Positions 1 through 20,041 of a stretch of 64,000 nt of DNA are shown piece by piece. A model generated the notes under the pieces. It had not been told where the DNA came from. It made no database searches and worked only from the letters and a program-made list of their open reading frames with translations. How positions within the stretch are numbered: the first letter of the stretch is position 1; the number at the start of each line of letters is the position of its first letter. Source of the stretch: a virus (lineage: Duplodnaviria > Caudoviricetes); IMG/VR virus record IMGVR_UViG_3300027804_000038, positions 96,001-160,000 of that record; one strand, 5' to 3'. The position numbers and the translations under genes are program-made.

Positions 1-303
1 TCCTTTAATTTGTGGAATCATGTCATCTGATGCTAAAAGTAATATGTCCCACTCGGTAAAATTTTCTAAGTCTCTATTAACCGCATGAACTTTAGATTTA
101 CTTTCCCCAACAACAACAGACACATTCGTAAAATTTTTTAATATGTCAAAAGTATCTTGATTATTCATTTCTATATCATCTCTATCGATTGATACTAAAA
201 ATTTTACATTATTAATATCGTCACATAAATCATAATATTTTTTAAAGGTATTAAAAAATTTATTTTTTCGACCTCTAGTTGGGAATTTTACTATAATCTT
301 CAT
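1..303 (-). CDS. GT-A (GT2-like) glycosyltransferase, N-terminal part; runs off the window edge
   Basis: Not in the ORF track. Manual translation from ATG at 303: MKIIVKFPTRGRKNKFF...VHAVNRDLENFTEWDILLLASDDMIPQIKG, with a GT2-like beta1 (PTRGR) and a DD motif. Overlaps the stop of the upstream ORF by 29 nt. Confidence 0.65.
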   Translation of the reverse strand, partial: MKIIVKFPTRGRKNKFFNTFKKYYDLCDDINNVKFLVSIDRDDIEMNNQDTFDILKNFTNVSVVVGESKSKVHAVNRDLENFTEWDILLLASDDMIPQIKG

Positions 304-1933
304 TGTATAAATTAATATAACTCAATTTTATGTTTTCGGAAACAATAGACGAATAAAATTTTTGTAAATCGTTTGGTACTAAATGTAATTTTTTACTAAT
401 AATGTTACCTAAATTATCTACGTCATATATCCATCCCGATTTTCCACACATCCAACCCTCGATAGTTGTTCTTCCTAATAAAATACCTGCAGTTTCGGAA
501 CATTTATGTATATATTTTTCAACTTCGGTAGTGGGCCCAAAATGTTTAACATGAGAATTTTGTAGTACTTCAGTCAAATAATCAGATTTATTCTCACCAA
601 CTAACCATAATTCCTTACCTTCATTTTTTGACACTTCTATTAAATCAAAAATTGTATTTTTCCTTAGATAATCTATTGACCCTACAAACAATATATAATT
701 TTCAGATTTAATATTTTTAGGAGTAAATTTAGTTTCGTCTATTGGGTTATAAATAATTTCAATTTTGTCTTCACTAATATCAAAGTTTTTAATAATGTGT
801 TCTTTAATTTCAGGACGAATTGCGATGTATTTTTTAATAGACGGGTGTTTTACAGGGTTTTCCAATTCAATAACTTCTGAATGGATTGTACAGACTTTGT
901 CAACTGTTGGATAAAGCATATTCATGACTTCAACTATTGGTTTGTGCTGACAATGAATTATATCAAAATGAGGAACTTCAACCTGATAAAAATTATTAGG
1001 TACTGATGGTTGAGGTCCTTTTTCAGTCATTACCATCCATTTTCCATCCCCCATTTTAAATCCTGGGGTTTCTCTAATATTTTTAACTTTAATACCTAAT
1101 TTAGTTGCCATTAAAACTAATGGACCGTTAGTTTCTGATGCAACAACAGTTACATCACAATTTAATTTAATTAAATTTTTAGCTAATTCAAAAACATACA
1201 TCTCAGACCCTGTAAATCTTTGGAAGAAAAGACAAGATATTAAAACTTTTAGTTTTGAATTTTCATCAAATCTAACCTTAGATGGTAGGGAGTCTTTATA
1301 TTTTTCTGCAAATATTTTTCTATTAATTTCCCATTGTTCATTAGTCATTCCGATTGATTTATGGGTAATTCTGATATTTGTCATTACCCCAATCTTAACT
1401 CCCTCTATGAAATTTTTATAACAAAAATTAACATCGTACATGTGAAATCCATCTACAGATTCATCAAATTTTGATTTTATTTTATTTTTGTCTATCGCTA
1501 TAAAAACACCATCAACTACAACAACTTCTTTTAATGAATTTTGTAATGATTCAGAGTATTTTGATTCCCATTTTTTACCATTATTTTCATGATTTACAAT
1601 TCCATACATCTTAGTTCTGTCTTCCCACCACGTACCACTTTTGGGTATATGAGTCGTTCCAGCCATTCCAATTATTCCGTAATCAGGATTCTTATCAAAA
1701 TTTCTAACTAATTTTGAGGCCCAATTATTAGTATCAAAATAAATGTCATCATGGCATAACACGACAACATTGTATTCAGATTCAGATATTATTTCATTAT
1801 AAACTGTAGATAAATTTTTTTCCCCATTATTAATTTTTTCAATAATCTGTATTTTTGGGTGACCTGCAATTTTTTTTAGGTATTCTTGGAAATACGGATT
1901 TGTTTTTCTTGTGCTATATCCAATTGTAATCAT
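275..1933 (-). CDS. Two-domain glycosyltransferase: GT2-like N-terminus fused to GT4/GT-B-like C-terminus
   Basis: N-terminal VVVLCHDDIYF and FHMYDVNFC (Glyco_tranf_2_5-like). C-terminal TGSEMYVFELAKNL, DIIHCQH, IIYNPIDETKF and ILFVGSI are typical of GT4. Confidence 0.75.
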   Translation of the reverse strand: MITIGYSTRKTNPYFQEYLKKIAGHPKIQIIEKINNGEKNLSTVYNEIISESEYNVVVLCHDDIYFDTNNWASKLVRNFDKNPDYGIIGMAGTTHIPKSGTWWEDRTKMYGIVNHENNGKKWESKYSESLQNSLKEVVVVDGVFIAIDKNKIKSKFDESVDGFHMYDVNFCYKNFIEGVKIGVMTNIRITHKSIGMTNEQWEINRKIFAEKYKDSLPSKVRFDENSKLKVLISCLFFQRFTGSEMYVFELAKNLIKLNCDVTVVASETNGPLVLMATKLGIKVKNIRETPGFKMGDGKWMVMTEKGPQPSVPNNFYQVEVPHFDIIHCQHKPIVEVMNMLYPTVDKVCTIHSEVIELENPVKHPSIKKYIAIRPEIKEHIIKNFDISEDKIEIIYNPIDETKFTPKNIKSENYILFVGSIDYLRKNTIFDLIEVSKNEGKELWLVGENKSDYLTEVLQNSHVKHFGPTTEVEKYIHKCSETAGILLGRTTIEGWMCGKSGWIYDVDNLGNIISKKLHLVPNDLQKFYSSIVSENIKLSYINLYNEDYSKIPN

Positions 1934-2517
1934 ATTCCTGTACTTCCAAATCCGTTATTACCTCTATCTTTTTCTTTAATAGTATCTACTTTAATTAAAT
2001 TTACCCATCTACCGCTTATACAACTTGAGAGTACCGCTTGAGCAACTTTCATACCCTTAGTTATTTTGAACTCATGATTATTGGTATTAAAAACTATAAC
2101 TTTAATTTCCCCAGTGTAACCCTCATCAACAGTACCTGGAGAATTCAAAACCATTAGTCCTTGATTAATTGCCAAACCACTTTTAGTTCTTACTTGTAGT
2201 TCATAATTTTCAGGTAAATTAACTCTAACTCCAGTAGGTACAAGTGACCTTCCTAATGGAGGTATTATTACTTCTTCTGACGAGTATAAGTCAAATCCAC
2301 TATCTGAAGGATAGTTATATGACAATTCTTTATCAGTGGATGTATATTCTATTTTTATCTTTGACATATCAGTCATATGAGATTCAAGCTCTTTTAAATC
2401 TAATCCTAATAAATCAATTATTTCATTGTAACTGTTGTACCCATCTTCATCGGATTCCAATAATTTTTTTAAATCATCTAAACCATTTAAAATGTCTTTA
2501 TTATAATTTTCATCCAT
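1930..2517 (-). CDS. dut: Trimeric dUTPase with an acidic N-terminal extension
   Basis: All five motifs present: SGFDL, RTKSGL, GTVDEGYTGEI, KVAQAV, RGNNGFGSTG. Confidence 0.95.
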   Translation of the reverse strand: MDENYNKDILNGLDDLKKLLESDEDGYNSYNEIIDLLGLDLKELESHMTDMSKIKIEYTSTDKELSYNYPSDSGFDLYSSEEVIIPPLGRSLVPTGVRVNLPENYELQVRTKSGLAINQGLMVLNSPGTVDEGYTGEIKVIVFNTNNHEFKITKGMKVAQAVLSSCISGRWVNLIKVDTIKEKDRGNNGFGSTGI

Positions 2518-3209
2518 TAAATTAACTTTTTAATTACGTTTATTAAAACCTCCACATCTTTCTCACAATAATCCTGTATTTCTTGGTATTTGTTTTCATT
2601 CCAAAAAGCATTATGAACTTTATTACCTGTTATTTCCATTGTTTTTGGACTCTCGACCCCTAAAGAAACACACATTAATTCTAAAGATGAAATCGCTCCG
2701 AATTGACCATATTGCCAAATTTCTTTAGTATCAATTGCTTTAACTTCCCACGGTTTAGTATCATAAGTTGGTAATATTTGTGACGGTTTAATTCCATTAA
2801 TTATCATTCTTTTTGCTAAAACAGGAATATCAAAATTTTTAATGTTGTGACCACACAATACAAAATCTAATTTACCAACTCTATTTAGTAGATTATTAAC
2901 ATCCTGAAGTAATTGTTTTTCATCTGAATTAAAAAATGTTTGTTTTTTAATTTCTCCTTTAGGGTCAACAAAGGCAAATGACACACATACAATTTTTGAA
3001 AACTCAGGTACTAAAGCCGCTCTATTTATAAAAATTTCTTCTTTTTCTTTAAGACTATCCTCAGGGAATCTTTTTATAAACCAATCTAGATAGTTTATAA
3101 ATTGATATTCTAATTCAGGATAATCCGTTTTAAAATTTTCATAGTTAGATGAAATACCTACAGTCTCAATGTCCAAAAAAATTATTTTTTGTAATGGTGT
3201 TTTTATCAT
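2517..3209 (-). CDS. Stand-alone DEDDy 3'-5' exonuclease (PolB-exonuclease-like)
   Basis: ExoI FLDIET, ExoII GHNIKNFDIP, ExoIII YCEKDV. Confidence 0.85.
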   Translation of the reverse strand: MIKTPLQKIIFLDIETVGISSNYENFKTDYPELEYQFINYLDWFIKRFPEDSLKEKEEIFINRAALVPEFSKIVCVSFAFVDPKGEIKKQTFFNSDEKQLLQDVNNLLNRVGKLDFVLCGHNIKNFDIPVLAKRMIINGIKPSQILPTYDTKPWEVKAIDTKEIWQYGQFGAISSLELMCVSLGVESPKTMEITGNKVHNAFWNENKYQEIQDYCEKDVEVLINVIKKLI

Positions 3210-4420
3210 AGGATTGAGTTATAAAATTCACTTCTTGTTTTAGTTACTATTGCCAAGTCGTACCTTGTTGATACGTGTTCGTAAAGTCTTTCTCCCATAT
3301 CTTTAACCATATTTGGATTTTGTACTAACTTTTTTATTGCTTTAGCCCAATCAGAATGGTTCCTATGGTCATCGACTAATATCGCATTACCGTCAACAAA
3401 TTCTCCATTCTTTAAACAATGCGTTAAATCAATGGTGTATGGACCATAGTTTGAAGCAATTAACGCTTTCTTATAAAACCCAGCCTCAATAACCTTTAGT
3501 TGAGATTTTACTTTATTAAAAATATGTGGTTTAATTGGCGCTAAAGATACGTCAAATTTAGAGTAATTTTTGGCGTAGGATGTCACAGGTTTTGTCCAAA
3601 CTCTAATGTAATTTTCATTATTTTCATTTTCAAAAGGACTCTGAACAAATTTTTCCAAATATGTTTTATATTCTGGAGTTACAATTTTATAGTTGTCTGT
3701 GAATATTTTTTCATATTCATACCAAACAGTTTCATTAGGTTTAATTGGTCTTTGTTTTTGTTCACCTGTTTGAGGATTAATTTCGGTCATAGTCCCACGA
3801 GTATCAAAACCGCAAAGGACATATTGTAATTTATCTTTTTGGTCTGATAATTTTGCAACCATACCATCCAATAACATTAAATCATGTAAGTGTGATGAAC
3901 CTCCTAACCACCCAACTCTAAGTCTTTCACTTTCAATAGTAGGTTCTTTAAACTGAGTTTCGTTTGGGTCAATTGCGTTTGGAAGAACTACTACATTCTT
4001 GTTTATTTTTCTAATTTCATCCGCATATAATTCGGTAGTAGTTGTTACGTATTTTGCAACTTTTATATTCGCAACAATTTTTTCATGGATTTTTTGTTGG
4101 AAAATTAATTGGTGTAAAGGGTGTTCCTTAGTTGGGAGCCAATAATCATCAATATCACAAATAGTTATTATACCTAAATTATTTAAAACTGGTACAAATT
4201 CAATAGACCTATCTAAGTCCTGACCTATACTGCGATGAAAATGTACTATTTGATATTGTTTCCAAAAATTTAAATCAGTAAAATCTAAATCAAATACAAT
4301 ATCTACGTGAAAATTTTCGGGATATAGTTTTTGTAAAAAAATGTGAGGGTCGATAGACCTAAATTTACCAACACCTGTTCTATCTGAAGGTATGACTAAT
4401 ACTTTGATTTTTTCTTTCAT
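3206..4420 (-). CDS. GT-B (GT4-like) glycosyltransferase
   Basis: GVGKFRSIDPH, DIDDYW, VLPNAID, VGWLGGSSHLHDL, FNKVKSQLKVIEAG, ASNYGPY. Confidence 0.8.
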   Translation of the reverse strand: MKEKIKVLVIPSDRTGVGKFRSIDPHIFLQKLYPENFHVDIVFDLDFTDLNFWKQYQIVHFHRSIGQDLDRSIEFVPVLNNLGIITICDIDDYWLPTKEHPLHQLIFQQKIHEKIVANIKVAKYVTTTTELYADEIRKINKNVVVLPNAIDPNETQFKEPTIESERLRVGWLGGSSHLHDLMLLDGMVAKLSDQKDKLQYVLCGFDTRGTMTEINPQTGEQKQRPIKPNETVWYEYEKIFTDNYKIVTPEYKTYLEKFVQSPFENENNENYIRVWTKPVTSYAKNYSKFDVSLAPIKPHIFNKVKSQLKVIEAGFYKKALIASNYGPYTIDLTHCLKNGEFVDGNAILVDDHRNHSDWAKAIKKLVQNPNMVKDMGERLYEHVSTRYDLAIVTKTRSEFYNSIL

Positions 4421-7040: not shown

Positions 7041-7067
7041 TATAAATACATGGAAATGCGTATTTAT
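7041..7067. promoter_or_regulatory. Back-to-back TATTTAT late-promoter-like motifs
   Basis: TATTTATA on minus (7048-7041) before the ATG at 7027; TATTTAT on plus (7061-7067) before the in-frame ATG at 7074. Confidence 0.6.
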
Positions 7068-9200
7068 CATAAGATGTCACAACAGAATATAAGAGAATAT
7101 AATTTTAAAAAATGGTATTTAAGACCTGTGGGTCAAATGCTTGATATAAATTTAGCCTCAGACGAAAGAGACTATAATGAGGAAGTAATATTCTCAACAA
7201 AACTAATCGGACAAGACGATGGTAATCGATTACCAATTTACTTTGATTTAAATAATACAGGGTCTTCACAGCAGATTACCATAAATTATGGAGATTACAT
7301 TTTTGCAAACACTTTAGTTTCATTAAATTATTATAACCCTAATAATGAAAATTTAAATTGCTTAACTTCAAGTACTTTATGTGACATAGGATTAACAGGT
7401 ATTGATAACGGACTTGTGCCTGAAATGACTGGTGAGACCATTAATTTTACTATGGGATTATATACAGGTACCACTAAATGGAATAGGTATTATTTTGATA
7501 GAAGACAAAAATTAATTTCCATAACTGGATATACAAATTTACCAAATGAAAGATTTTCAGGAAACACAAAAGAAACAGTATATGATATGGTATCAAAAAC
7601 TGGAGCCACTGTTGGGTATTATAATCAATTATATGGTGGATTTTATCAAGGATTTTTTAAATTATTTGGATATGATTATGAAACATTTCCTGAACGGACT
7701 AATAAAGGATGGACTGTTGAAATGTTGCTTAGAGCTCGTCAGGAAGAAGAGTTTTCTCCCACATCCGCACAAACAACTTTAAATTTAACATATCCTGAAA
7801 ATAAAAATACTTTTTTTTACTTTGGGACAAGAGCGGAAAACAAATTTTATCATCACGCTTCAGGGTCTCCTTCTTCTGATACAGGGTACACTAGAGTTAC
7901 ATCATACTTGGAGGGTTGTCTAAAAACCTGTGCATGCTCAAATACAGGGGTTACAAATTCTAGATGTATTGAGGTTTACGAACCAATGTTATACACATCA
8001 GAAAGTAATTCAAATTGTAATTGTGTTTGTGAAACAACATCTGAAGTTCTTAATAATGATAAAAATCCCCTTTATGATTCGATGTCAAATTCATTTTCAT
8101 TGCGATTATCAGGTGACCCAAAAAATCCTAAAATTTGTGTTAAAGTTTTAACTTTTACAGGAGGATGTGTTACAACAGGGACTTGTCCTACAACTGGTAT
8201 AACATATCAAACAGGATATACTATAAATGAATATTGTTCATCTAATCAAATTTTTAATTATTGTGCGAATGAAAATTCTTTATTTTTAAACACTGAACAT
8301 TGGTTTTTAATTGATTGTGTATGGGAAAGAAATTCTTATTATGATACATGTGATTTATATTATAATGGTGGATTAGGACTAATATCTAAAAATGTATATG
8401 TGAATAGTTTATCTAATAATTCTGTGTTACTTATACAACCACCAATAACCCACACTGGTAATACTCCAGCTGAAACTGTTGAAATTGTAAATCTTAATGA
8501 AAGGTGGTTGATAGAAAGAGATGAAAGATTAGGTTCGTTAAAAATATTCGTAAACGGTAAATTATTTTATGTGATTAATGGATTTGAAGAAGTAATACCA
8601 AGGGGACTAAACACTGAAAAAGAAAAACAAATTGGTGTTCCGTTTAATATGTCGTGGGGAGGTGGTACACAGGGGTTAAGAGAAAGTTTAACTTTTTCTG
8701 GATGTCCAACAAGTTTAACAGGTAATACATACATACAAGACCCTGAATCAATGCCTAATCAAACATTATCAGGTACTTCTTTATCTGCCTTAACTACAAA
8801 TATATTAATAGAACCAACTTTTGGAGGTTCTTTTGATGGGGCAATATCTCAATTTAGAATGTACGTTGAACCTTTGAGTTATCCTGAGATATTACATAAT
8901 TTTGATATATTAAAAAATCAATTCGAATTGTTTGATTTCAGATGTCCTAATTGTCCAACAGGTTTAACCTATAATATAGGATATAGTGGTAATGGAACTT
9001 CAATATTATTTTCATCCACAACACTTAGTTCGTATACTTTTAATTTATCTTATTCGTCTGAGACCTACCCAAATAGATATTCGGTAGGTAGTGGATTAAC
9101 ATTTAATAATGTTATTACTCCACCATCGTATGAAAATTCATTTTATTATTTTTATTTTTCAGGGTTTGACCAAACTATAAAAGTTAATTTCACTATTTAA
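7050..9200 (+). CDS. Cys-rich virion-type protein with a LamG/concanavalin A-like domain (probable start 7074)
   Basis: GSLKIFVNG and FDGAISQFRMYVEPLSYPEILHNF are LamG-like; about 19 Cys; Thr/Gly-rich. Confidence 0.55.
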   Translation: MEMRIYHKMSQQNIREYNFKKWYLRPVGQMLDINLASDERDYNEEVIFSTKLIGQDDGNRLPIYFDLNNTGSSQQITINYGDYIFANTLVSLNYYNPNNENLNCLTSSTLCDIGLTGIDNGLVPEMTGETINFTMGLYTGTTKWNRYYFDRRQKLISITGYTNLPNERFSGNTKETVYDMVSKTGATVGYYNQLYGGFYQGFFKLFGYDYETFPERTNKGWTVEMLLRARQEEEFSPTSAQTTLNLTYPENKNTFFYFGTRAENKFYHHASGSPSSDTGYTRVTSYLEGCLKTCACSNTGVTNSRCIEVYEPMLYTSESNSNCNCVCETTSEVLNNDKNPLYDSMSNSFSLRLSGDPKNPKICVKVLTFTGGCVTTGTCPTTGITYQTGYTINEYCSSNQIFNYCANENSLFLNTEHWFLIDCVWERNSYYDTCDLYYNGGLGLISKNVYVNSLSNNSVLLIQPPITHTGNTPAETVEIVNLNERWLIERDERLGSLKIFVNGKLFYVINGFEEVIPRGLNTEKEKQIGVPFNMSWGGGTQGLRESLTFSGCPTSLTGNTYIQDPESMPNQTLSGTSLSALTTNILIEPTFGGSFDGAISQFRMYVEPLSYPEILHNFDILKNQFELFDFRCPNCPTGLTYNIGYSGNGTSILFSSTTLSSYTFNLSYSSETYPNRYSVGSGLTFNNVITPPSYENSFYYFYFSGFDQTIKVNFTI

Positions 9201-9239
9201 GAATTATTTATTTTTTTTATTTTTTAAAAAAATAAATAA

Positions 9240-10484
9240 ATGAAAATTTATATTCAAATTGCGTCATATCGTGACCCACAATTATTACCAACAATCGAAT
9301 CCGCATTAAAAAATGCAAAATTTCCTGAAAATTTAGTTTTTGGTATTGCCAGACAATATTCGGATGAGGATAAATTTGATAGGTTAGATGATTATTACAA
9401 AGATGATAGATTTAGAATAATTGATATACCTTATACTGAGTCAAAAGGAGCTTGTTGGGCTAGAAATAAAATACAACAATATTATAGCGGTGAAACCTAT
9501 ACATTACAAATTGATTCTCATATGAGATTTGCTGAAAATTGGGATTATGAGATGATTGAAATGGTAAAAGATTTACAATTAAAAGGATATAAAAAACCAT
9601 TATTAACGGGTTATGTTTCATCTTTTGACCCTGACAATGACCCCCAACTAAGGATACAAGAACCATGGAGAATGGTTTTTGATAGATTTATACCTGAAGG
9701 AGCAGTTTTCTTTTTACCTGAAACAATCCCAAATTGGAGAGATTTGAGTGGTCCTGTCCCATCAAGATTTTACTCCGCACATTTTTGTTTTACGGTTGGT
9801 GAATTCGCTAAAGAAGTCCAACATGACCCAGAATTTTATTTTCACGGTGAAGAAATTTCAATAGCCGCAAGAGCATATACACATGGTTACGATTTGTTTC
9901 ATCCTCATAAAGTTTTAATTTGGCACGAATACACTCGTAAGGGTAGAACAAAACAATGGGATGATGATAAAAATTGGGTTGAAAAAAATAATTTTTGTCA
10001 TAAGAAAAATCGTTCCCTTTTTGGAATGGACAATGAATCAGAAATGGACTTTGGTAAATACGGTTTTGGAACTGAAAGGTCACTAAGGGAATATGAAAAA
10101 TACTCAGGACTACTATTCTCAAAAAGAGCGGTTCAACAATATACAATAGACAAACACTATCCTCCAAATCCTTATAATTTTAATGATGAAGAAGAATGGA
10201 TGAACTCATTCTCAACAATATTTAAACATTGTATTGATGTATCATATAATCAAGTACCTGAAGACGATTACGATTTTTGGGTTGTTGCTTTTCACGATGA
10301 AAATGACGATACAATACATAGACAAGATATTGATGGAGAAGGCATTAAAATGTTAAAAAATGACCCTGATGGTTATTGTAAAATTTGGAGACAATTTAAT
10401 ACCGATAAAAAACCAAAGTATTGGGTTGTTTGGCCACACTCAATATCTAAAGGATGGTGTGATAGAATAACAGGTAATTTATAA
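9240..10484 (+). CDS. GT60-like polypeptide/hydroxyproline GlcNAc-transferase
   Basis: N-terminal IQIASYRD, GACWARN, LQIDSHMRF (DxH), YSAHFCF, FHGEE and WHEY are hallmarks of the Skp1 Gnt1/GT60 family. Confidence 0.8.
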   Translation: MKIYIQIASYRDPQLLPTIESALKNAKFPENLVFGIARQYSDEDKFDRLDDYYKDDRFRIIDIPYTESKGACWARNKIQQYYSGETYTLQIDSHMRFAENWDYEMIEMVKDLQLKGYKKPLLTGYVSSFDPDNDPQLRIQEPWRMVFDRFIPEGAVFFLPETIPNWRDLSGPVPSRFYSAHFCFTVGEFAKEVQHDPEFYFHGEEISIAARAYTHGYDLFHPHKVLIWHEYTRKGRTKQWDDDKNWVEKNNFCHKKNRSLFGMDNESEMDFGKYGFGTERSLREYEKYSGLLFSKRAVQQYTIDKHYPPNPYNFNDEEEWMNSFSTIFKHCIDVSYNQVPEDDYDFWVVAFHDENDDTIHRQDIDGEGIKMLKNDPDGYCKIWRQFNTDKKPKYWVVWPHSISKGWCDRITGNL

Positions 10485-10488
10485 TATT

Positions 10489-11199
10489 ATGGAATTTTGT
10501 TTTGCAACCTTTTGTTTTGGTGAAAGATACTATAATCAAGTAAATAGGTTTATTGAGGATATTGAAAAATCTGATTTTAAACCAACCTTGGTTGTTGTTA
10601 CTGACAACCCAAATAAAATTTTAAAATATGATTTTGTTAAAGTTTTTAACATTTTAGAATTTAATTCAGATTATTCAGATTATGCTAAAAATTACTACGA
10701 TTTTGATTTTTCAGTTAAAAGATATTCTGTAAGAGCTTCTTTTAATTTGGGGTATACAAATATTATTTTAGTAGATGCGGATATGAGAGTTAATTATAAT
10801 CTATTTAATATGGATACAATATATAGTTCATTTACTATAAATTCAATATTAGGTCCTGTAACTTATAATTTTACAGAACAGATTAAAACAAATAGTGAAC
10901 TTGGGGTCCGTTTTATGGAATATGAAAAATATTTTAACATAAATGTAGATAAATCTAATTTGGATTTTATGCCAGAGGATTGTGTCCAATATATAAGTTT
11001 AGATTATGAAAAATACAAACACTTTTTAGATACATGGGATAAGTGTATTGAATATAAGAAAAATAAACCTTTAAGGAATATACCCGCAGGAAACATAGAC
11101 GAAATGTGTTTTTCCGCACTAATTAATGGTATATCTGTAGGTAATAATTCAAGTAAATCTTTAAATATTGTTTATGCAGAACATGACAAATGGTACTAA
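10489..11199 (+). CDS. Putative GT-A nucleotide-sugar transferase
   Basis: VVVTDNP, FDFSVKRY, IILVDADM (DxD); lies in a glycosyltransferase operon. Confidence 0.55.
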   Translation: MEFCFATFCFGERYYNQVNRFIEDIEKSDFKPTLVVVTDNPNKILKYDFVKVFNILEFNSDYSDYAKNYYDFDFSVKRYSVRASFNLGYTNIILVDADMRVNYNLFNMDTIYSSFTINSILGPVTYNFTEQIKTNSELGVRFMEYEKYFNINVDKSNLDFMPEDCVQYISLDYEKYKHFLDTWDKCIEYKKNKPLRNIPAGNIDEMCFSALINGISVGNNSSKSLNIVYAEHDKWY

Positions 11200-12037
11200 A
11201 ATAGTTTCTTCAATATACGAATTGAATTATGTCCAACAAAGAAATGGGGAAAGATATAAAAATTTTCCACTACTTGTTGCAACAATTAAAAATTTAATTT
11301 TTCCTGAATATAACTATGTAATATATACTGATAAAAATTCATATGATAAGTTTAATTTAAAAGACGAATTTAATTACTCAAACGTAGAATTTAAATTTAA
11401 AGAATTGAACACTTCTGAAACTTGTGAATTAATTGATAAAATCAGAACTGAAGAATTATCAGGTGGGATGAATTATGATAGAATTTATTGCGTAAACAAT
11501 TATTTGGAAGTCGTTATAAACAAACTAAAATTTTTAATTGACGAATCATTTGATTGTGAATCTATTTTTTGGATTGATGCGGGTTTAATAGGTACATCAT
11601 GTCATGATGGATGGAGAGATTACATGGCACCTTTAATCAATTCTAAAAATTTTTTAGACAAAACGGTTGATAAAATCAATAAACATGGTTTCATTCATTT
11701 AAAGGGTAATTCAATTGTGATGAATTATGAAATGAAAGATAGATTTAGAGATTTATTTGGTGTAGAGTTGGATGTAGTTCCAGGTTGTTTATTTGGGGGT
11801 AAATCTGAAAAGGTTAGAAATATTTTAGATGGTTATTTAGATATTTTTGTAAGTTATTTAAAAACACATAACCAATTAATTAGTGAACAAGAAGTACTAA
11901 CCGTACTAACTCAAATTAAAAAGGAAGAATGTTATGCTTTTGAATTTGACGATTGGTTAGACTTACAAAAGTCTTTTTTGAAAATCTTAGACATTTATGA
12001 TGAATCAAAATATGTAAGGGAAAAATGTTATGTTTAA
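11168..12037 (+). CDS. HtrL/YibB-like protein (putative glycan-modifying GT-A fold)
   Basis: IFWIDAGL, PGCLFGG and SEQEVLT motifs, shared with ORF 12590. Confidence 0.55.
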   Translation: MFMQNMTNGTKIVSSIYELNYVQQRNGERYKNFPLLVATIKNLIFPEYNYVIYTDKNSYDKFNLKDEFNYSNVEFKFKELNTSETCELIDKIRTEELSGGMNYDRIYCVNNYLEVVINKLKFLIDESFDCESIFWIDAGLIGTSCHDGWRDYMAPLINSKNFLDKTVDKINKHGFIHLKGNSIVMNYEMKDRFRDLFGVELDVVPGCLFGGKSEKVRNILDGYLDIFVSYLKTHNQLISEQEVLTVLTQIKKEECYAFEFDDWLDLQKSFLKILDIYDESKYVREKCYV

Positions 12038-12593
12038 AATAAACATTGTGTGTACAACAATTGGAAGAATCACCTTACCTAGATTAATAGAATCTTTTAA
12101 GAATCAATTAAGTGAGGATGATATTTTTACTATAATTTCAGATACAAATCATTCGTATGTTGGGGAAATATTAAAATTATTTGATTTTAAGTTTAAAGTT
12201 AATCATATTATTAATGAAGGTGAAAGAATGTGGAAATACGGACACCCTTTAATTAACAAATACATTAATGAGTTGGAGGGTGATTTTATCATGTTTGCAG
12301 ATGATGACGATAGATACACTGAGAACGCTTTTAAAGTCATAAAAGAAACCATCAAAGATAAAAATACTTTATATATTTTTAAACACAATTGGTTGGGGGA
12401 TATTAATTGGAAACTTAAAGATTTTACAAGAGGTAATGTTGGTAAATGTATGGGGGTAATACCAAATACCCGTAATTTACCTAAGTTCCAAGAGGATGTT
12501 TTTGGAGATGTTATTTTTTATGAAGAAATAAGTAAAATGTTTAAAAGTGAATTTATTGATTATATAATTTATAAAGTTAGAGATACTGAATGA
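12030..12593 (+). CDS. GT2-family glycosyltransferase
   Basis: IVCTTIGR, FTIISD, FIMFADDDDRY, GDVIFY. Confidence 0.75.
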   Translation: MFKINIVCTTIGRITLPRLIESFKNQLSEDDIFTIISDTNHSYVGEILKLFDFKFKVNHIINEGERMWKYGHPLINKYINELEGDFIMFADDDDRYTENAFKVIKETIKDKNTLYIFKHNWLGDINWKLKDFTRGNVGKCMGVIPNTRNLPKFQEDVFGDVIFYEEISKMFKSEFIDYIIYKVRDTE

Positions 12594-14257
12594 AAAATAT
12601 TACTCTTGTTACAGGTCTTTGGGATATTGGTAGAGAAAATTTATCCGAGGGTTGGTCTAGACCATTTTCACATTATTTAGAAAAATTTGAACAGCTTTTA
12701 AAAGTTGAAAACAATTTAATAATTTTTGGTGAAGAAAATATTGAAGAATTTATTTGGGAAAGAAGAGAGTCTCATAATACACAGTTTATAAAAAGAGATA
12801 AACAATGGTTCATTGATAATGAATTTTTTGGAAAAATACAAAAAATAAGAAATAACCCTGACTGGTATAATCAATCTACGTGGTTAAGAGACTCAACCCA
12901 AGGAAAATTAGAGATGTATAATCCTTTAGTTATGTCTAAAATGTTTTTATTAAATGACGCTAGAATTTTAGATAAATTTGATTCCGATTTAATGTTTTGG
13001 ATTGATGCTGGATTAACAAATACTGTACATTATGGTTATTTTACTCACGATAAAGTTTTAGATAATCTACCAAAATACATTACTAAATTTTCATTTGTAT
13101 GTTTTCCATATGATGCAAATAATGAAATACATGGATTCTCATACCCAAAAATAAATGATTGGGCTGAGAATGATGTTAAAAAAGTTGCGAGGGGTGGATT
13201 TTTTGGAGGACCAAAAGATAGTATCTCAGAGGTTAATTCAATATATTATTCTTTATTAAATGACACATTAGTTAACGATTATATGGGTACGGAAGAATCA
13301 ATATTTTCAATAATGGTCTATAAAAATTCAGAAATTATAAATTATTTTGAAATAGAGTATAATGGACTATTAAGTAAATTTTTTGAAGATTTAAAAAACG
13401 ATAAATTAATAGTTAAATCTGAAAAAAAATTATCTGTTAATTTTGATATTGAAAAAACCGCATTATATGTCATAACATTTAACAGTCCTAATCAATTTGA
13501 GACTTTAATTAACTCAATGATGGAATATGATTCTGATTTTATTCACAAACCAAAAAAATTTTTATTAGATAATTCAACTGATTTGTCTACAACTGAAAGG
13601 TACTTAGAGATATGTAAAGAATACGATTTTGAACATATTAAAAAAGATAACATTGGGATTACTGGAGGTAGACAATTTATAGCTGAACATTTTTATAATA
13701 CTGAGTTAGATTATATGTTTTTCTTTGAGGATGATATGTTTTTTTATTCTAAAAAAGGTGAGGTATGTAAAAATGGGTTTAATCGGTACACAGATTCTTT
13801 ATATCAAAAAAGTTTAGAAATAATTAATAAAGAAAATTTTGATTTTATAAAATTAAACTTTACTGAATTTTATGGGGATAACAGTACACAGTGGAGTTGG
13901 TATAATGTCCCTCAAAATTTTAGAGAGTCTCATTGGCCAAAAAATAAAAAATTACCTAAAATGGGATTGGACCCAAATGCCCCAAGAACAAAATTTAATG
14001 AAATAAAATCTCATAAAGGGGTTCCATACGCATCAGGAGAAGTTTATCTATGTAATTGGCCCATATTACTATCAAAACAGGGAAACTATAAATGTTATAT
14101 TGAAACAAAATATGAACATCCTTTTGAACAAACATTAATGTCCCACAATTTCCAAGAAACTATTAAAGGAAATTTAAAACCTGGAATATTATTAATGACC
14201 CCTACCGAACATAATCGATTTGACCATTATGATTCTTCTTTAAGAAAAGAGTGTTAA
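12590..14257 (+). CDS. HtrL/YibB-like domain fused to a GT2-like domain
   Basis: N-terminal ITLVTGLWDIGR, FWIDAGL, GGFFGG, GTEESIFS; C-terminal VITFNSP, LLDNS, YMFFFEDDM. Confidence 0.65.
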   Translation: MKNITLVTGLWDIGRENLSEGWSRPFSHYLEKFEQLLKVENNLIIFGEENIEEFIWERRESHNTQFIKRDKQWFIDNEFFGKIQKIRNNPDWYNQSTWLRDSTQGKLEMYNPLVMSKMFLLNDARILDKFDSDLMFWIDAGLTNTVHYGYFTHDKVLDNLPKYITKFSFVCFPYDANNEIHGFSYPKINDWAENDVKKVARGGFFGGPKDSISEVNSIYYSLLNDTLVNDYMGTEESIFSIMVYKNSEIINYFEIEYNGLLSKFFEDLKNDKLIVKSEKKLSVNFDIEKTALYVITFNSPNQFETLINSMMEYDSDFIHKPKKFLLDNSTDLSTTERYLEICKEYDFEHIKKDNIGITGGRQFIAEHFYNTELDYMFFFEDDMFFYSKKGEVCKNGFNRYTDSLYQKSLEIINKENFDFIKLNFTEFYGDNSTQWSWYNVPQNFRESHWPKNKKLPKMGLDPNAPRTKFNEIKSHKGVPYASGEVYLCNWPILLSKQGNYKCYIETKYEHPFEQTLMSHNFQETIKGNLKPGILLMTPTEHNRFDHYDSSLRKEC

Positions 14258-14274
14258 TTCTATATTTATGTAAT

Positions 14275-14655
14275 ATGGAATTTTTCATAAAACAAGGTGC
14301 GACTTTACCGTTATTAAAAATGCAATTCTTTGAGGATGGAAAATCCTCTATGGATGATTTTAATTCTTTGGTTGAAAATTCAGCTATTTATTTTTCGATG
14401 AAAAATGCTGAGACGGGAGTATATAAATTTTTAAATAAACCTGCGGGTATTACAACGAAGACATTTATTGAACCTAATGCCAAGGTAGAATATTATATTT
14501 ACTATAAATTTTCTTCTTCAGATACTAATAAAGTTGGTAGATATGAAGGGGAATTTTTAATAGTGTCTGATGATGGTACTGCAATTCTACCAATTACTGA
14601 AAAATTATACATAAACATTGGAGAAAAATTTGTAATTAATGGACTTTTATATTAA
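14275..14655 (+). CDS. BppU-N-like small structural/adaptor protein (start reassigned from 14251 to 14275)
   Basis: MEFFIKQGATLP...YYKFSSSDTNKVGRYEGEF...ILP pattern; TATTTAT at 14263-14269 just upstream. Confidence 0.5.
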   Translation: MEFFIKQGATLPLLKMQFFEDGKSSMDDFNSLVENSAIYFSMKNAETGVYKFLNKPAGITTKTFIEPNAKVEYYIYYKFSSSDTNKVGRYEGEFLIVSDDGTAILPITEKLYINIGEKFVINGLLY

Positions 14656-15571
14656 AAAAGGAGCTTCATTACCGATATTAAAAGTCGAGATGTGTTTAGA
14701 TGGTAGAAGTGACTATCACCTTAACTCTTATATTAACAGTGAGTTACCTGTTTATTTATCATTAATTAACGAATCAAATGGTACTATTTTGTTCGCCTCA
14801 AAAGAGTGTTTTGTAACTTCTGAATTTTCTTCGTTTGAAAATAAAATGTTGTATTATATTAATTACCAATTTACTAGAAAGGAAACTAATGAAATAGGTA
14901 AATTTACAACTCAATTTTCTATATCAAGTGATAATGGTGTAGTATTACTTCCATTAAAAGAGAAGATATATGTAAACATAATTGACTCATTTTCTGTTAA
15001 TGATTTTGGAAGTCAATCAAAATATATCGTAGACTTACCATGTTGCAATCCCCCAAATCCAACACCAACCCCGACACAGACCCCAACACCTACTCAAACT
15101 CAAACACCGACACAAACTAACACTCAAACACCTACACAGACGCAAACACCTACACAAACACAAACGCAAACGCCTACACAAACCCAAACACCTACGCAGA
15201 CTAGTTCGCAGACCCCAACTCCAACATTAACCCCAACCCAAACAAATACCCCAACACCGTCAAATAGTAATTTTATTTATTCTTTTACATCAAATTCTTC
15301 AATAAATACTTTAAGGATTGACGATGTAACTTTAGGTTACTCAATTATTGTAACTACAAATACTACTTCTAATTTTATATTACCTAGTGGAAATACATAT
15401 AGAGTTAGGTTAATCTTTACCCCTGGTGGAGGTTCATCCGCAACTTTAAGATTGACTAAAAATGGAGTTGCAATATTCGATAGTACAATTCTATCACCAG
15501 GCACTCTGGATACGGGTAATTTAGTCGCAACAAATGCTCAATACATTTGTACCGCAACGATTCCAAAATAG
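14639..15571 (+). CDS. BppU-N-like paralogue plus mucin-like Thr/Pro/Gln linker plus C-terminal beta domain
   Basis: N-terminus MDFYIKKGASLPILK parallels ORF 14275; 67-aa TPTQ repeat; beta-rich C-terminus. Confidence 0.55.
   Translation: MDFYIKKGASLPILKVEMCLDGRSDYHLNSYINSELPVYLSLINESNGTILFASKECFVTSEFSSFENKMLYYINYQFTRKETNEIGKFTTQFSISSDNGVVLLPLKEKIYVNIIDSFSVNDFGSQSKYIVDLPCCNPPNPTPTPTQTPTPTQTQTPTQTNTQTPTQTQTPTQTQTQTPTQTQTPTQTSSQTPTPTLTPTQTNTPTPSNSNFIYSFTSNSSINTLRIDDVTLGYSIIVTTNTTSNFILPSGNTYRVRLIFTPGGGSSATLRLTKNGVAIFDSTILSPGTLDTGNLVATNAQYICTATIPK
15059..15259 (+). repeat. Coding tandem repeat (TPTQTQ)n, 67 aa
   Basis: Roughly every second codon is Thr; synonymous positions vary (ACA/ACC/ACT/ACG). 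Confidence 0.95.
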
Positions 15572-18584: not shown

Positions 18585-18920
18585 TTATTCTGACTTAATT
18601 CCGTCAGAAGAGACTATATACCAATTTCCAAATGAGAAGTAAATTTCAATACATGCGCCTTTTTTAATATTTACTTCAGAATATTCTTCATCAATTAAAC
18701 CAACTAATGGAGATATTTTAGTATTTGTTAATGATTTTATTGTAACATGGTCAGTTTTAGAAGAATCTAAAATTATTTGACAGTTCTCAACATCCTTAAC
18801 AATTATTAGAGATTCTCCATTTGTTGTGTATAATTGTTCAGAAACAAATGATATTTCCGAAGTCTCAATTAAAACACCTCCAATTATTCTTTGACTCGGT
18901 ATTGATTTTTGTACTGGCAT
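18585..18920 (-). CDS. Hypothetical beta-rich protein, probably virion-associated
   Basis: 111 aa, coupled to the neck gene, ends in GNWYIV. Confidence 0.55.
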   Translation of the reverse strand: MPVQKSIPSQRIIGGVLIETSEISFVSEQLYTTNGESLIIVKDVENCQIILDSSKTDHVTIKSLTNTKISPLVGLIDEEYSEVNIKKGACIEIYFSFGNWYIVSSDGIKSE

Positions 18921-20041
18921 TATATTACATATATATTTCTTGGAAATGCTCTTGTTTTAAGTTGTTTCTGTAAATTTTCGGCAATTAGAGCCTCTCTTTC
19001 CATTATTTTTTCAGGTCTTAATCTTGTTAATCTTCCGTCTGCACCAATTAATTCCTCTATTAATTTTGTTTTTTCATCTTTACCTTCAGTGGCTAAAGAA
19101 GCGTAATCCATAGTTAATTCAGAATCTGGTGTTTTTAAATTTCCTGAATATTTTCCTCTTACTTTTGACAGTGTTTCTTTACAACTTGCAACAAAATATC
19201 TTCTAACCCACTGTCTTGCTGGGTTATTTAAATCTGACCAAGACATTTCATCTAAAGGAACGTCTGATGGTAATTTTATAATATCAGGATTATCTCTTAA
19301 ACAAGAATCTCTATCCGCACCTTCAGTATCATAATACCAATACCAAACCTGACCTTTCATTAAAGATGAATTACCAAAGTCAAATTTACCACCAGGAGTT
19401 TGCATTAAATGTACTGCTTTTTTACCTTCAGGTAATGCTGTCACACGATATGTTAAATCTCCCGCAATGATTCTTTTTTGTATATTAATTTCCTGTAGTC
19501 TTAACATCATGTCAAATGCTGGCATCATAAAATAAGACCCTGTATATCCCATTTGCGAATATCCTGCTGGACCACCAAGACCATAACCGCCAAGAGCCCC
19601 AAAACTCCATGGGTCAAAGAGAACGTTTGTCATTGGTGTTGGTGTGAACCAAAGTAATTCGTTTATTTCTCTATTAGCAGGTATTTCATATATTTGTACG
19701 TTAGGTTCTAATTGTATGTAATCTTTCTTTAGTACCCACGGTCCATTATTTTGTAAGCCTACAATTTTAGAATAAGCATACTGATATCGTTGTTCGTAAT
19801 CAAAACTTCTTGTAATAAATGCAGTGGATAAAGAACTTACGTCTAAATTTAAATTATATAATGAAGTCCACTGAGATTCTATTAACCAATCTTGGATATA
19901 TTGTGAATAATCACCAATTGAGAATTCTAATATAGTGTCTAATTGCTCGTCTTCTAATTCAATTGAGCGTAAAGGAGCCCCTAATACATGACGTACTTTT
20001 GTATATAATTGACTTCTTTCTGGTTCTGCGATTATTGCCAT
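18920..20041 (-). CDS. Neck/head-completion protein (T4 gp13-like)
   Basis: VRHVLGAPLRSIELEDEQLD N-terminus and KVRGKYSGNL...ATEGKDE C-terminus resemble gp13. Confidence 0.65.
   Translation of the reverse strand: MAIIAEPERSQLYTKVRHVLGAPLRSIELEDEQLDTILEFSIGDYSQYIQDWLIESQWTSLYNLNLDVSSLSTAFITRSFDYEQRYQYAYSKIVGLQNNGPWVLKKDYIQLEPNVQIYEIPANREINELLWFTPTPMTNVLFDPWSFGALGGYGLGGPAGYSQMGYTGSYFMMPAFDMMLRLQEINIQKRIIAGDLTYRVTALPEGKKAVHLMQTPGGKFDFGNSSLMKGQVWYWYYDTEGADRDSCLRDNPDIIKLPSDVPLDEMSWSDLNNPARQWVRRYFVASCKETLSKVRGKYSGNLKTPDSELTMDYASLATEGKDEKTKLIEELIGADGRLTRLRPEKIMEREALIAENLQKQLKTRAFPRNIYVI

Follow-up and report, generated by a model that had tools for sequence, protein, structure and literature searches.

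Glycosyltransferase family 60 (GT60) is known as a family of protist polypeptide alpha-N-acetylglucosaminyltransferases, with the pp-alphaGlcNAcTs of Dictyostelium and Trypanosoma cruzi as its examples (PMC8724618). The T. cruzi enzyme TcOGNT1 makes GlcNAc-alpha-1-O-Thr on mucins (PMC9472816), and all of the characterised GT60 enzymes described in these two reports glycosylate polypeptides. Here we examined a GT60-like gene and its surroundings in a 64,000-nucleotide (nt) stretch of DNA from an uncultured, contractile-tailed jumbo phage, bases 96001–160000 of the 293,850-bp IMG/VR record IMGVR_UViG_3300027804_000038, which is rated complete by CheckV. We refer to this whole stretch as the window, and coordinates are window positions unless labelled genome. 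An earlier inspection of the letters alone (hereafter the sequence-only reading) had proposed that the locus O-glycosylates the phage virion. We found that GT60 genes are statistically associated with proteins carrying threonine/proline (Thr/Pro, or TP) tracts in both phages and bacteria, and we regard it as reasonably probable that the locus encodes a cytoplasmic mucin-type protein O-glycosylation system that is expressed with the structural genes.

The phage enzyme resembles the protist GT60 enzymes in its PF11397 domain and its DxH motif. The protist acceptors are proteins (for TcOGNT1, Thr in mucin-like proteins), and other transferases go on to lengthen the chain from the first sugar, the same logic that we propose for the phage. 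By contrast, the enzyme examined here is encoded by a bacteriophage, and many bacteria have homologues of it; it is a soluble protein, presumably of the cytoplasm and not Golgi-resident, and it carries an extra conserved C-terminal domain of ~120 amino acids (aa), its activity being a prediction. It is also paired with an enzyme that joins an HtrL-like and a GT-A-like half, a partner that protist pathways, to our knowledge, lack.

Glycosylation of virion proteins has been described for the mycobacteriophages Che8, Corndog and Myrna, where it is reported to fall on the capsid and the tail tube (cited in PMC12619734 and PMC12363180). As in our proposal, glycosyltransferases encoded by the phage itself act there, within the cytoplasm of the host, on proteins of its virion. 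WIVsmall, a Che8-type F1 phage, has an HtrL/YibB-annotated gene near its glycosyltransferase genes, a further likeness to the locus. The mycobacteriophage enzymes, however, target the C-termini of capsid and tail-tube subunits rather than long Thr/Pro stalks, and no GT60 initiator is reported for them. The phage examined here also has far more enzymes (~15 glycosyltransferase-like genes), together with a nucleotide-sugar pathway.

The closest functional analogue may be the glycosylation of serine-rich-repeat adhesins in Gram-positive cocci. There, GtfA/GtfB initiate O-GlcNAc addition on a long Ser/Thr repeat in the cytoplasm, and the chain is then built up step by step by several GT-A and GT-D enzymes whose genes adjoin that of the substrate. 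A GT-D-like gene (a weak match) also occurs in the phage's sugar island, described below. The initiator of the adhesin system, by contrast, is a GT4 (GT-B) enzyme and its product is exported by SecA2/Y2, whereas the phage initiator would be GT60 and its product would stay on the virion. Giant viruses likewise make virion-surface glycans independently of their hosts (Mimivirus fibrils, the chlorovirus capsid), with their own nucleotide-sugar synthesis and many glycosyltransferases. Like the phage, they combine amino-deoxy sugars and acetyl- and methyl-transferases with these enzymes; unlike it, they have eukaryotic hosts and a different initiating chemistry, and we know of no description of a logic that pairs Thr/Pro tracts with GT60 in them. 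On the acceptor side, BppU of the lactococcal phage TP901-1 and baseplate proteins of 80alpha, NF5 and Douge resemble ORF8, the last open reading frame (ORF) of the locus, in what may be a related immunoglobulin (Ig)-like N-domain of the same topology (Z 7.3–8.6, barely above generic Ig domains), followed by a linker and a distal domain. ORF8 differs from BppU in having no sequence-level match to it, in belonging to a contractile-tailed jumbo phage and in having a 71-aa Thr/Pro/Gln tract as its linker. A literature search for GT60 or PF11397 in bacteriophages found no paper that links them.

GT60 is associated with Thr/Pro-tract proteins in phages and bacteria

The window contains five consecutive plus-strand genes (9240–14257) that encode six glycosyltransferase-like domains and are followed directly by the paralogous genes ORF7 and ORF8 (Table 1), an arrangement that the sequence-only reading had described. 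That reading had also named the first gene GT60, and it was right to do so. The protein matched PF11397 with 231.9 bits (cut-off 21; E = 1.9e-68), a match that was confirmed on the whole genome, and it matched phrog_24687 with E = 1.4e-170. A DxH motif, D92-S-H94, lies inside a conserved LQ[IL]D[SA]H block, with D92 and H94 invariant in an alignment that reaches down to 28% identity. By its sequence, the protein is thus a clear GT60/PF11397 member with the DxH metal-binding motif. A phmmer search against PDB sequences (E <= 0.01) found no match, so there was no solved relative for comparison. In a separate IMG/VR record (G013, 311 kb; L216:8493-10952(-)), GT60 forms the N-terminal 300 residues of an 820-aa fusion, with a T-rich 477-aa ORF 3.6 kb away from the fusion gene.

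To describe the close relatives of the locus, we used 80 related IMG/VR loci whose GT60 was 70–80% identical, and we counted an ORF as T/P-rich if it had at least 16 T+P within 30 residues. Such ORFs lay beside GT60 in 74 out of 80 loci, usually ending just before GT60 or fused behind an ORF7/8-type domain; most of these loci have the ORF7/8-type domain joined to a T/P tract. Gene order was conserved in these loci: GT60, variable genes, ORF6, one or more Ig-domain genes and PolB. The sequence-only reading had named an unlinked arrangement of GT60 and TP-repeat genes in relatives as a reason to abandon it; we tested this in four ways, the first being the 74 linked loci, and none of them bore out such an arrangement.

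Two cultured phages also encode GT60, Xanthomonas phage XacN1 (48% identity) and Stenotrophomonas phage RAS14 (46%), and both carry an ORF4-like gene as well. We counted 21 TPTxTPT-coding sites in the phage examined here, 51 in XacN1 and 22 in RAS14, all three GT60-positive, compared with none in each of phiKZ, G, RSL1, GAP32 and P-SSM2 (1.6 Mb in total), none of which has PF11397. The sites in XacN1 belong to a family of paralogous genes and to large genes that directly follow those for the tail sheath. In the XacN1 locus (L083, AP018399.1 213153-232496), GT60 is separated from the ORF6 homologue by an annotated carbamoyltransferase, and a gene annotated as GT9 lies nearby, which hints at carbamoylated glycans in that phage.

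Sampling in the reverse direction gave a similar picture. Among 39 IMG/VR records picked solely by a (TPTx)2TPT pattern, PF11397 was present in 14, including 10 of the 16 records of at least 100 kb. Nine of the 14 belonged to the phage's own lineage (68–75% identity), and the other five had GT60s of 60, 44, 35, 33 and 30% identity. The carriers come from at least five lineages; in the 44% lineage, PT-repeat ORFs again flank GT60. GT60 matched only 4 out of 50,697 isolated phage records.

The association extended to bacterial chromosomes. A profile search returned at least 557 GT60 loci in GTDB genomes from many phyla, with holders that include Burkholderiaceae, Acidobacteriota, Verrucomicrobiota, Gemmatimonadota and Bacteroidota. 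We kept 80 of these loci, 62 of them spanning at least 12 kb. An ORF6 homologue lay within 8 kb of GT60 in 24 out of 80 loci, often directly adjacent, and a TP-rich ORF lay within the same distance in 24 out of 80 loci (19 out of 62 among those of at least 12 kb). As controls, we took 40 segments of the same size from 27 of the genomes that had supplied the loci, at a distance of 80–160 kb. No TP-rich ORF occurred in any of the 40 controls, compared with 19 out of 62 loci (Fisher p = 3e-5), and the matched set gave 7 out of 27 loci against 0 out of 40 controls (p = 0.001).

We compared ten of the TP-rich neighbours with Pfam. Three were VgrG spikes with (PT)n tracts (Ralstonia, Paraburkholderia and Achromobacter) and one was a tail-sheath-like protein (Azospirillum); the others had LamG, BNR/fn3 or glycoside-hydrolase-like domains. 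The VgrG and sheath-like neighbours mean that the pairing recurs on cytoplasmically assembled contractile machines well outside the phage lineage, and this suggests a so far unrecognised glycosylation of contractile injection systems.

Partner enzymes, candidate acceptors and expression signal

ORF6, the conserved partner of GT60, matched the HtrL_YibB profile PF09612 with 62.6 bits (cut-off 24.1; E = 5.7e-17) and TIGR02192 with E = 7e-21, below the cut-off of that equivalog. Profile searches thus upheld both of the family names that the sequence-only reading had wanted to see confirmed, GT60 and HtrL/YibB. Full-length ORF6 homologues near GT60 were 43% identical in XacN1 and 40% in RAS14. ORF4 had no Pfam match, but it aligned with the HtrL half of ORF6 by BLASTP (E = 1e-6), with a WIDAGL motif in common, and it also matched the HtrL domains of many ORF6 homologues and an XacN1 gene annotated ORF332; we therefore consider it a divergent HtrL/YibB relative. 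The AlphaFold2 (AF2) model of ORF3 (pLDDT 89) showed a GT-A fold, with the GT6 enzymes ABO GTA/GTB, alpha3GalT and BoGT6a as its nearest structures (Foldseek E ~1e-6, TM ~0.5–0.6). Its DxD motif is invariant, and it had no Pfam or NCBIfam sequence match; on the strength of the model, we call it GT6-like, not a GT6 member. ORF5 matched PF00535 marginally (25.5 bits, cut-off 23.3), with a weak PglI-like match and a DDDD motif visible in its sequence. Because ORF3–ORF5 occur in only ~20 of the 80 related loci, we treat them as an exchangeable cassette.

Some of these families bear on a different explanation, in which the cluster makes or alters a non-protein glycan (host lipopolysaccharide [LPS], capsule, cell-wall polysaccharide or a soluble oligosaccharide) and could serve to block superinfection or to remodel the host surface. 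HtrL/YibB-family genes are reported from LPS or lipooligosaccharide core loci of E. coli and Acinetobacter, and GT2, GT8, GT4, Gmd, FdtA and DegT, as found in the locus and the island, are typical of O-antigen and capsule loci. We nonetheless consider this explanation quite unlikely. None of the seven locus proteins has a transmembrane segment, and no component of a membrane or export system came to light (no search for flippases, polymerases or lipid carriers was made in the island). The cytoplasm, the site of virion assembly, is therefore where these proteins would be active. The genes carry the motif of structural genes rather than an early one (see below), the characterised GT60 enzymes of PMC8724618 and PMC9472816 make no polysaccharide, and a non-protein product leaves the linkage to TP repeats unexplained.

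The candidate acceptor next to the enzymes is ORF8. The sequence-only reading had described ORF7 and ORF8 as BppU-like paralogues, one of them with a 67-aa TPTQ repeat. Their paralogy holds (37% identity between ORF7 and the N-domain of ORF8 over ~120 residues, E = 4e-26), and almost all of the 80 relatives have kept an ORF7-type gene behind their ORF6 homologue. The repeat is present too, with a corrected length of 71 aa: residues 137–207 of ORF8 (nt 15047–15259) contain 32 Thr (45%), 17 Pro and 15 Gln. This tract is written in mixed synonymous codons, and selection therefore acts on the peptide. In the AF2 model of ORF8 (alignment of 47 homologues), the N-domain formed an Ig-like sandwich with pLDDT ~90, the tract was disordered (pLDDT <50), and the small, beta-rich C-domain (aa 212–310) had low model confidence and no informative match.

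The likeness to BppU, by contrast, stood at the level of structure and not in Pfam. Using VIA, which is independent of Foldseek, we obtained as top chains for the N-domain 6v8i_BJ of the 80alpha baseplate (Z 8.6), 4v96_AA (Z 8.0), a 299-residue chain that we take to be TP901-1 BppU, and 3uh8_A, the N-domain of TP901-1 ORF48 (Z 7.3); baseplate proteins of NF5 and Douge were also among the best chains. Several BFVD models that matched the ORF8 model are annotated as BppU domain proteins. Neither ORF7 nor ORF8 had a Pfam match (E <= 0.1), BppU_N included, and a profile of the ORF7/8 family found low-complexity TP matches only among PDB sequences. Foldseek comparison of the ORF8 model with the PDB gave generic Ig domains only (E > 1e-3), and baseplate proteins surfaced only through VIA.

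An upstream motif, TATTTAT, was found before the transferase block (9205) and before the BppU-like pair (14263), where the sequence-only reading had placed it. Using crude gene calls for the whole genome, we found TATTTAT(A/T) within 60 nt upstream of 90 out of 327 genes, mostly 10–30 nt before the ATG, and octamers containing TATTTAT were 11- to 17-fold enriched upstream of genes. These figures indicate a real motif and not a chance AT-rich word. In the window, the motif stands before the genes for adaptor, sheath, tube and baseplate wedge, before a number of giant ORFs, and before the GT60 operon and ORF7/8; sites lie, for example, upstream of 18920-20041(-), 24910, 29091 and 54178. It was not found before PolB, two helicases, UvsX, ribonucleotide reductase (RNR), dUTPase or the exonuclease. 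The transferase operon and the paralogue pair therefore carry a signal specific to structural genes, and late expression of the locus, which the sequence-only reading had assumed, is supported by the motif. Because the motif sits so near to the start codon (5 nt for ORF7), it would imply late mRNAs that have very short leaders or are leaderless. Scans for sigma-70 promoters and terminators showed no enrichment over shuffled sequences.

The distribution of the motif also speaks to a further possibility, that the transferases add sugars to modified bases of the phage DNA, a hypermodification that would guard it against host restriction, as in T-even phages. The locus abuts PolB, and the second transferase operon, in the island, is interleaved with dUTPase and exonuclease genes. 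The C half of ORF6 weakly matched a TET-associated glycosyltransferase (E = 0.048) and a beta-glucosyl-HMC alpha-glucosyltransferase (E = 0.0012), and genes annotated as DNA polymerase and RNase H lie close to the GT60–ORF6 module of XacN1. Set against these points, the structural-gene motif stands before the transferase operon and not before PolB, and the bacterial chromosomal homologues of GT60 sit beside VgrG and other TP-tract proteins. The single PF00303 match in the genome is a canonical ThyA (NF002496, 344 bits, equivalog cut-off 325). The genome has no second thymidylate-synthase copy that could be a dCMP/dUMP hydroxymethylase, no TET/JBP and no ThyX. As no hydroxymethyl-pyrimidine pathway was found in the genome, DNA hypermodification is disfavoured, and we hold it to be very improbable.

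Table 1. Positions of the locus genes, motifs, neighbouring genes and related Thr/Pro-tract proteins. Positions are in the window unless marked as genome or preceded by a locus identifier.
Feature	Position	Strand	Basis or remark
Window end of leftward glycan island: GT2_5+GT4 fusion and GT1-like gene, with dUTPase and 3'-5' exonuclease	275..4420	-	
ORF1 (716 aa, Cys-rich), next gene upstream of GT60; candidate LamG-like appendage protein	7050..9200	+	
TATTTAT, late-type upstream motif before the glycosyltransferase operon	9205..9211	+	
GT60 / PF11397 polypeptide alpha-GlcNAc-transferase-like enzyme, 414 aa; proposed initiator	9240..10484	+	Profile match
ORF3, GT-A fold, GT6-like retaining-type glycosyltransferase, 236 aa; variable cassette	10489..11199	+	Structure model
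ORF4, HtrL/YibB-like protein, ~287 aa; variable cassette	11168..12037	+	BLASTP to ORF6
ORF5, small GT2-family enzyme, 187 aa; variable cassette	12030..12593	+	PF00535
ORF6, HtrL/YibB-like N half and GT-A-like C half, 555 aa; conserved GT60 partner	12590..14257	+	PF09612
TATTTAT, late-type motif, 5 nt before ORF7 start	14263..14269	+	
ORF7, bare Ig-like, BppU-N-like domain, 126 aa	14275..14655	+	True start ATG 14275
ORF8, 310 aa: Ig-like N-domain (aa 1-120), Thr/Pro/Gln tract (aa 137-207), beta-rich C-domain (aa 212-310)	14639..15571	+	
Protein with long TPTxTPT tracts, outside the window	genome 61011-63662	+	
Protein with long TPTxTPT tracts, outside the window	genome 168069-169091	+	
Protein with long TPTxTPT tracts, outside the window	genome 180912-183656	-	
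Bacterial VgrG with long perfect (PT)n tracts, 1-4 kb from GT60 homologue	L247:10270-13131	-	
Bacterial VgrG with long perfect (PT)n tracts, 1-4 kb from GT60 homologue	L281:13078-15573	-	
Bacterial VgrG with long perfect (PT)n tracts, 1-4 kb from GT60 homologue	L262:13052-15535	-	
Azospirillum tail-sheath-like protein with TP tract near GT60	L283:11070-13175	+	

A proposed route of tract glycosylation and its main competitor

In the mechanism that we propose, soluble GT60 would transfer a first N-acetylhexosamine, most likely alpha-GlcNAc from host UDP-GlcNAc, to Thr hydroxyls in the disordered Thr/Pro tracts of virion appendage proteins. The acceptors would be ORF8 next door and probably the genome's other TP-tract proteins. 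ORF6, with its HtrL-like and GT-A-like halves, would add the next sugar or sugars, and the ORF3–ORF5 cassette (GT6-like, HtrL-like and GT2) would diversify the chain, perhaps using unusual sugars from the neighbouring island. Flexible stalks, each running from a BppU-like domain that anchors it in the baseplate to a variable distal domain, would in this way come to bear a brush of glycans, with ORF8 sitting on the baseplate or tail. Plausible roles would be stiffening of the stalks and protection from proteases, or masking and tuning of adsorption. No PF13640 prolyl hydroxylase was found in the genome, so Thr is favoured over hydroxyproline as the acceptor; for the same reason, we set aside hydroxyproline-linked initiation, as on Skp1, as unlikely. 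Taken at the genomic level, the evidence supports the proposal of the sequence-only reading and contradicts none of its elements.

Several observations weigh against this mechanism. Most of the phage relatives represent one abundant lineage, so the synteny of the 80 loci attests conservation, not independence. XacN1 and RAS14 have no TP ORF within 9 kb of the GT60–ORF6 module; in XacN1, one giant protein contains a short TPTPTPT, and the position of the module near the DNA polymerase and RNase H genes, given above, also counts here. About 70% of the bacterial GT60 loci have no TP-rich neighbour, and some complete phage genomes are TP-rich and lack GT60. In VIA, the ORF8 N-domain scores Z 6.5–8 against unrelated Ig domains, so the BppU-like call, which lies barely above generic Ig-fold similarity and has no Pfam match, is a structural reading and not a family assignment. 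Late expression has the motif as its basis, and we infer the donor sugar (GlcNAc), the acceptor residue (Thr) and the location on the virion or tail.

Two of these observations, the bacterial loci without a TP-rich neighbour and the complete phage genomes that have TP linkers and no GT60, also favour what we see as the most serious alternative: that the transferases do glycosylate proteins, but away from the tracts, be it on capsid, tail tube or further folded proteins of the virion, or on host proteins during takeover, the tracts being plain linkers in a hypervariable appendage region. The only phage virion glycosylation reported as proven, in Che8, Corndog and Myrna, does fall on capsid and tail-tube subunits (cited in PMC12619734 and PMC12363180). 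The association of GT60 with TP tracts, which was seen in several phage lineages and in many phyla of bacteria and in 0 out of 40 controls, argues the other way, as does the action of TcOGNT1 on Thr of mucin-like proteins (PMC9472816). So does the fusion of the T/P tract, in relatives, to the conserved Ig-domain gene behind the transferase operon. On balance, we judge glycosylation off the tracts to be unlikely, and we keep to tract glycosylation as the reading to follow.

Genomic surroundings, source and wider meaning

The genome encodes at least four proteins with TP tracts, ORF8 among them; the other three (Table 1) are likely to be further acceptors. The protein at genome 61011-63662 has 883 aa and a Leu/Asn-rich repetitive C-terminal part that is leucine-rich-repeat-like by eye, and its gene lies behind a late-motif gene. 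The protein at genome 180912-183656 has 914 aa, several tracts and a repetitive Gly/Asn/Thr-rich C-terminal part. ORF1 had no Pfam or PHROG match, and a language-model search led to LamG/ConA-like lectin clusters, which we take as a lead only. Some relatives have ORF1 homologues with TP segments, and elsewhere the slot is filled by giant TP-rich ORFs of up to ~3,300 aa.

Divergent from ORF1 and GT60 runs a glycan island of ~20 kb (genome 80332-100420; locus L213), a single transcription unit whose gene content was confirmed by Pfam. Its sugar and tailoring enzymes are Gmd (396 bits), FdtA, two DegT aminotransferases, an SDR, a PglD-like acetyltransferase, and FkbM-type and other methyltransferases; PhoH, dUTPase and 3'-5' exonuclease genes are interleaved. 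The glycosyltransferases include GT2, GT8, the GT-D-like gene, a GT2_5+GT4 fusion and a GT1-like gene, about nine further glycosyltransferase-like genes in all. Locus and island together thus give the phage its ~15 glycosyltransferase-like genes and an amino-deoxy sugar pathway, and the island is an unusually large sugar toolkit for a phage. Elsewhere in the genome (269134-270246(+), locus L085), ThyA is long, at 371–380 aa, and its profile match is split in two; for these reasons, the protein probably carries an insertion.

The phage has a G+C content of ~30%, and its contractile tail is evident from the tail-sheath, tail-tube, baseplate-wedge and head–tail adaptor genes in the window. Near-identical DNA was present in freshwater, lake and estuary metagenomes (12 studies), with no RNA run among those that contain the locus, and GT60 of the phage falls into more than 7,400 metagenome protein clusters. 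A megablast search of the locus against isolated phages gave no DNA-level match. Contigs with close GT60 copies (64–70% identical) had been binned into metagenome-assembled genomes (MAGs) of Bacteroidota, among them Saprospiraceae and Chitinophagia, which points only weakly to the host. Contigs of this kind (L219–L224) also fall into Melainabacteria and Alphaproteobacteria MAGs, and they are probably phage contigs swept into the bins. One of them, L223, which was binned with Saprospiraceae and is 230 kb long, seems to be a relative of the phage in nearly complete form.

Glycosylation of phage-particle proteins has so far been known from a few mycobacteriophages only, and initiation of mucin-type O-glycans by GT60 only from protists. 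If the proposed mechanism is true, freshwater jumbo phages of an abundant group coat the stalks of their appendages with glycans that they make themselves, which would affect adsorption, protease resistance and recognition by hosts and grazers. We also put forward, tentatively and with more doubt than confidence, a wider view: GT60-initiated mucin-type O-glycosylation may be an old and widespread prokaryotic and phage system that coats the Thr/Pro stalks of contractile machines (baseplate appendages, VgrG of the type VI secretion system [T6SS] and sheath-like proteins). On this wider view, the cassette and the island would generate strain-specific virion glycan "serotypes", and GT60, a family hitherto taken for an invention of protists that goes back to the last eukaryotic common ancestor, would have its reservoir or its origin in bacteria or phages. 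The pairing of GT60 with tracts on T6SS VgrG would then be an unrecognised modification of a major bacterial weapon, and the origin of eukaryotic mucin-type initiation would be reopened.

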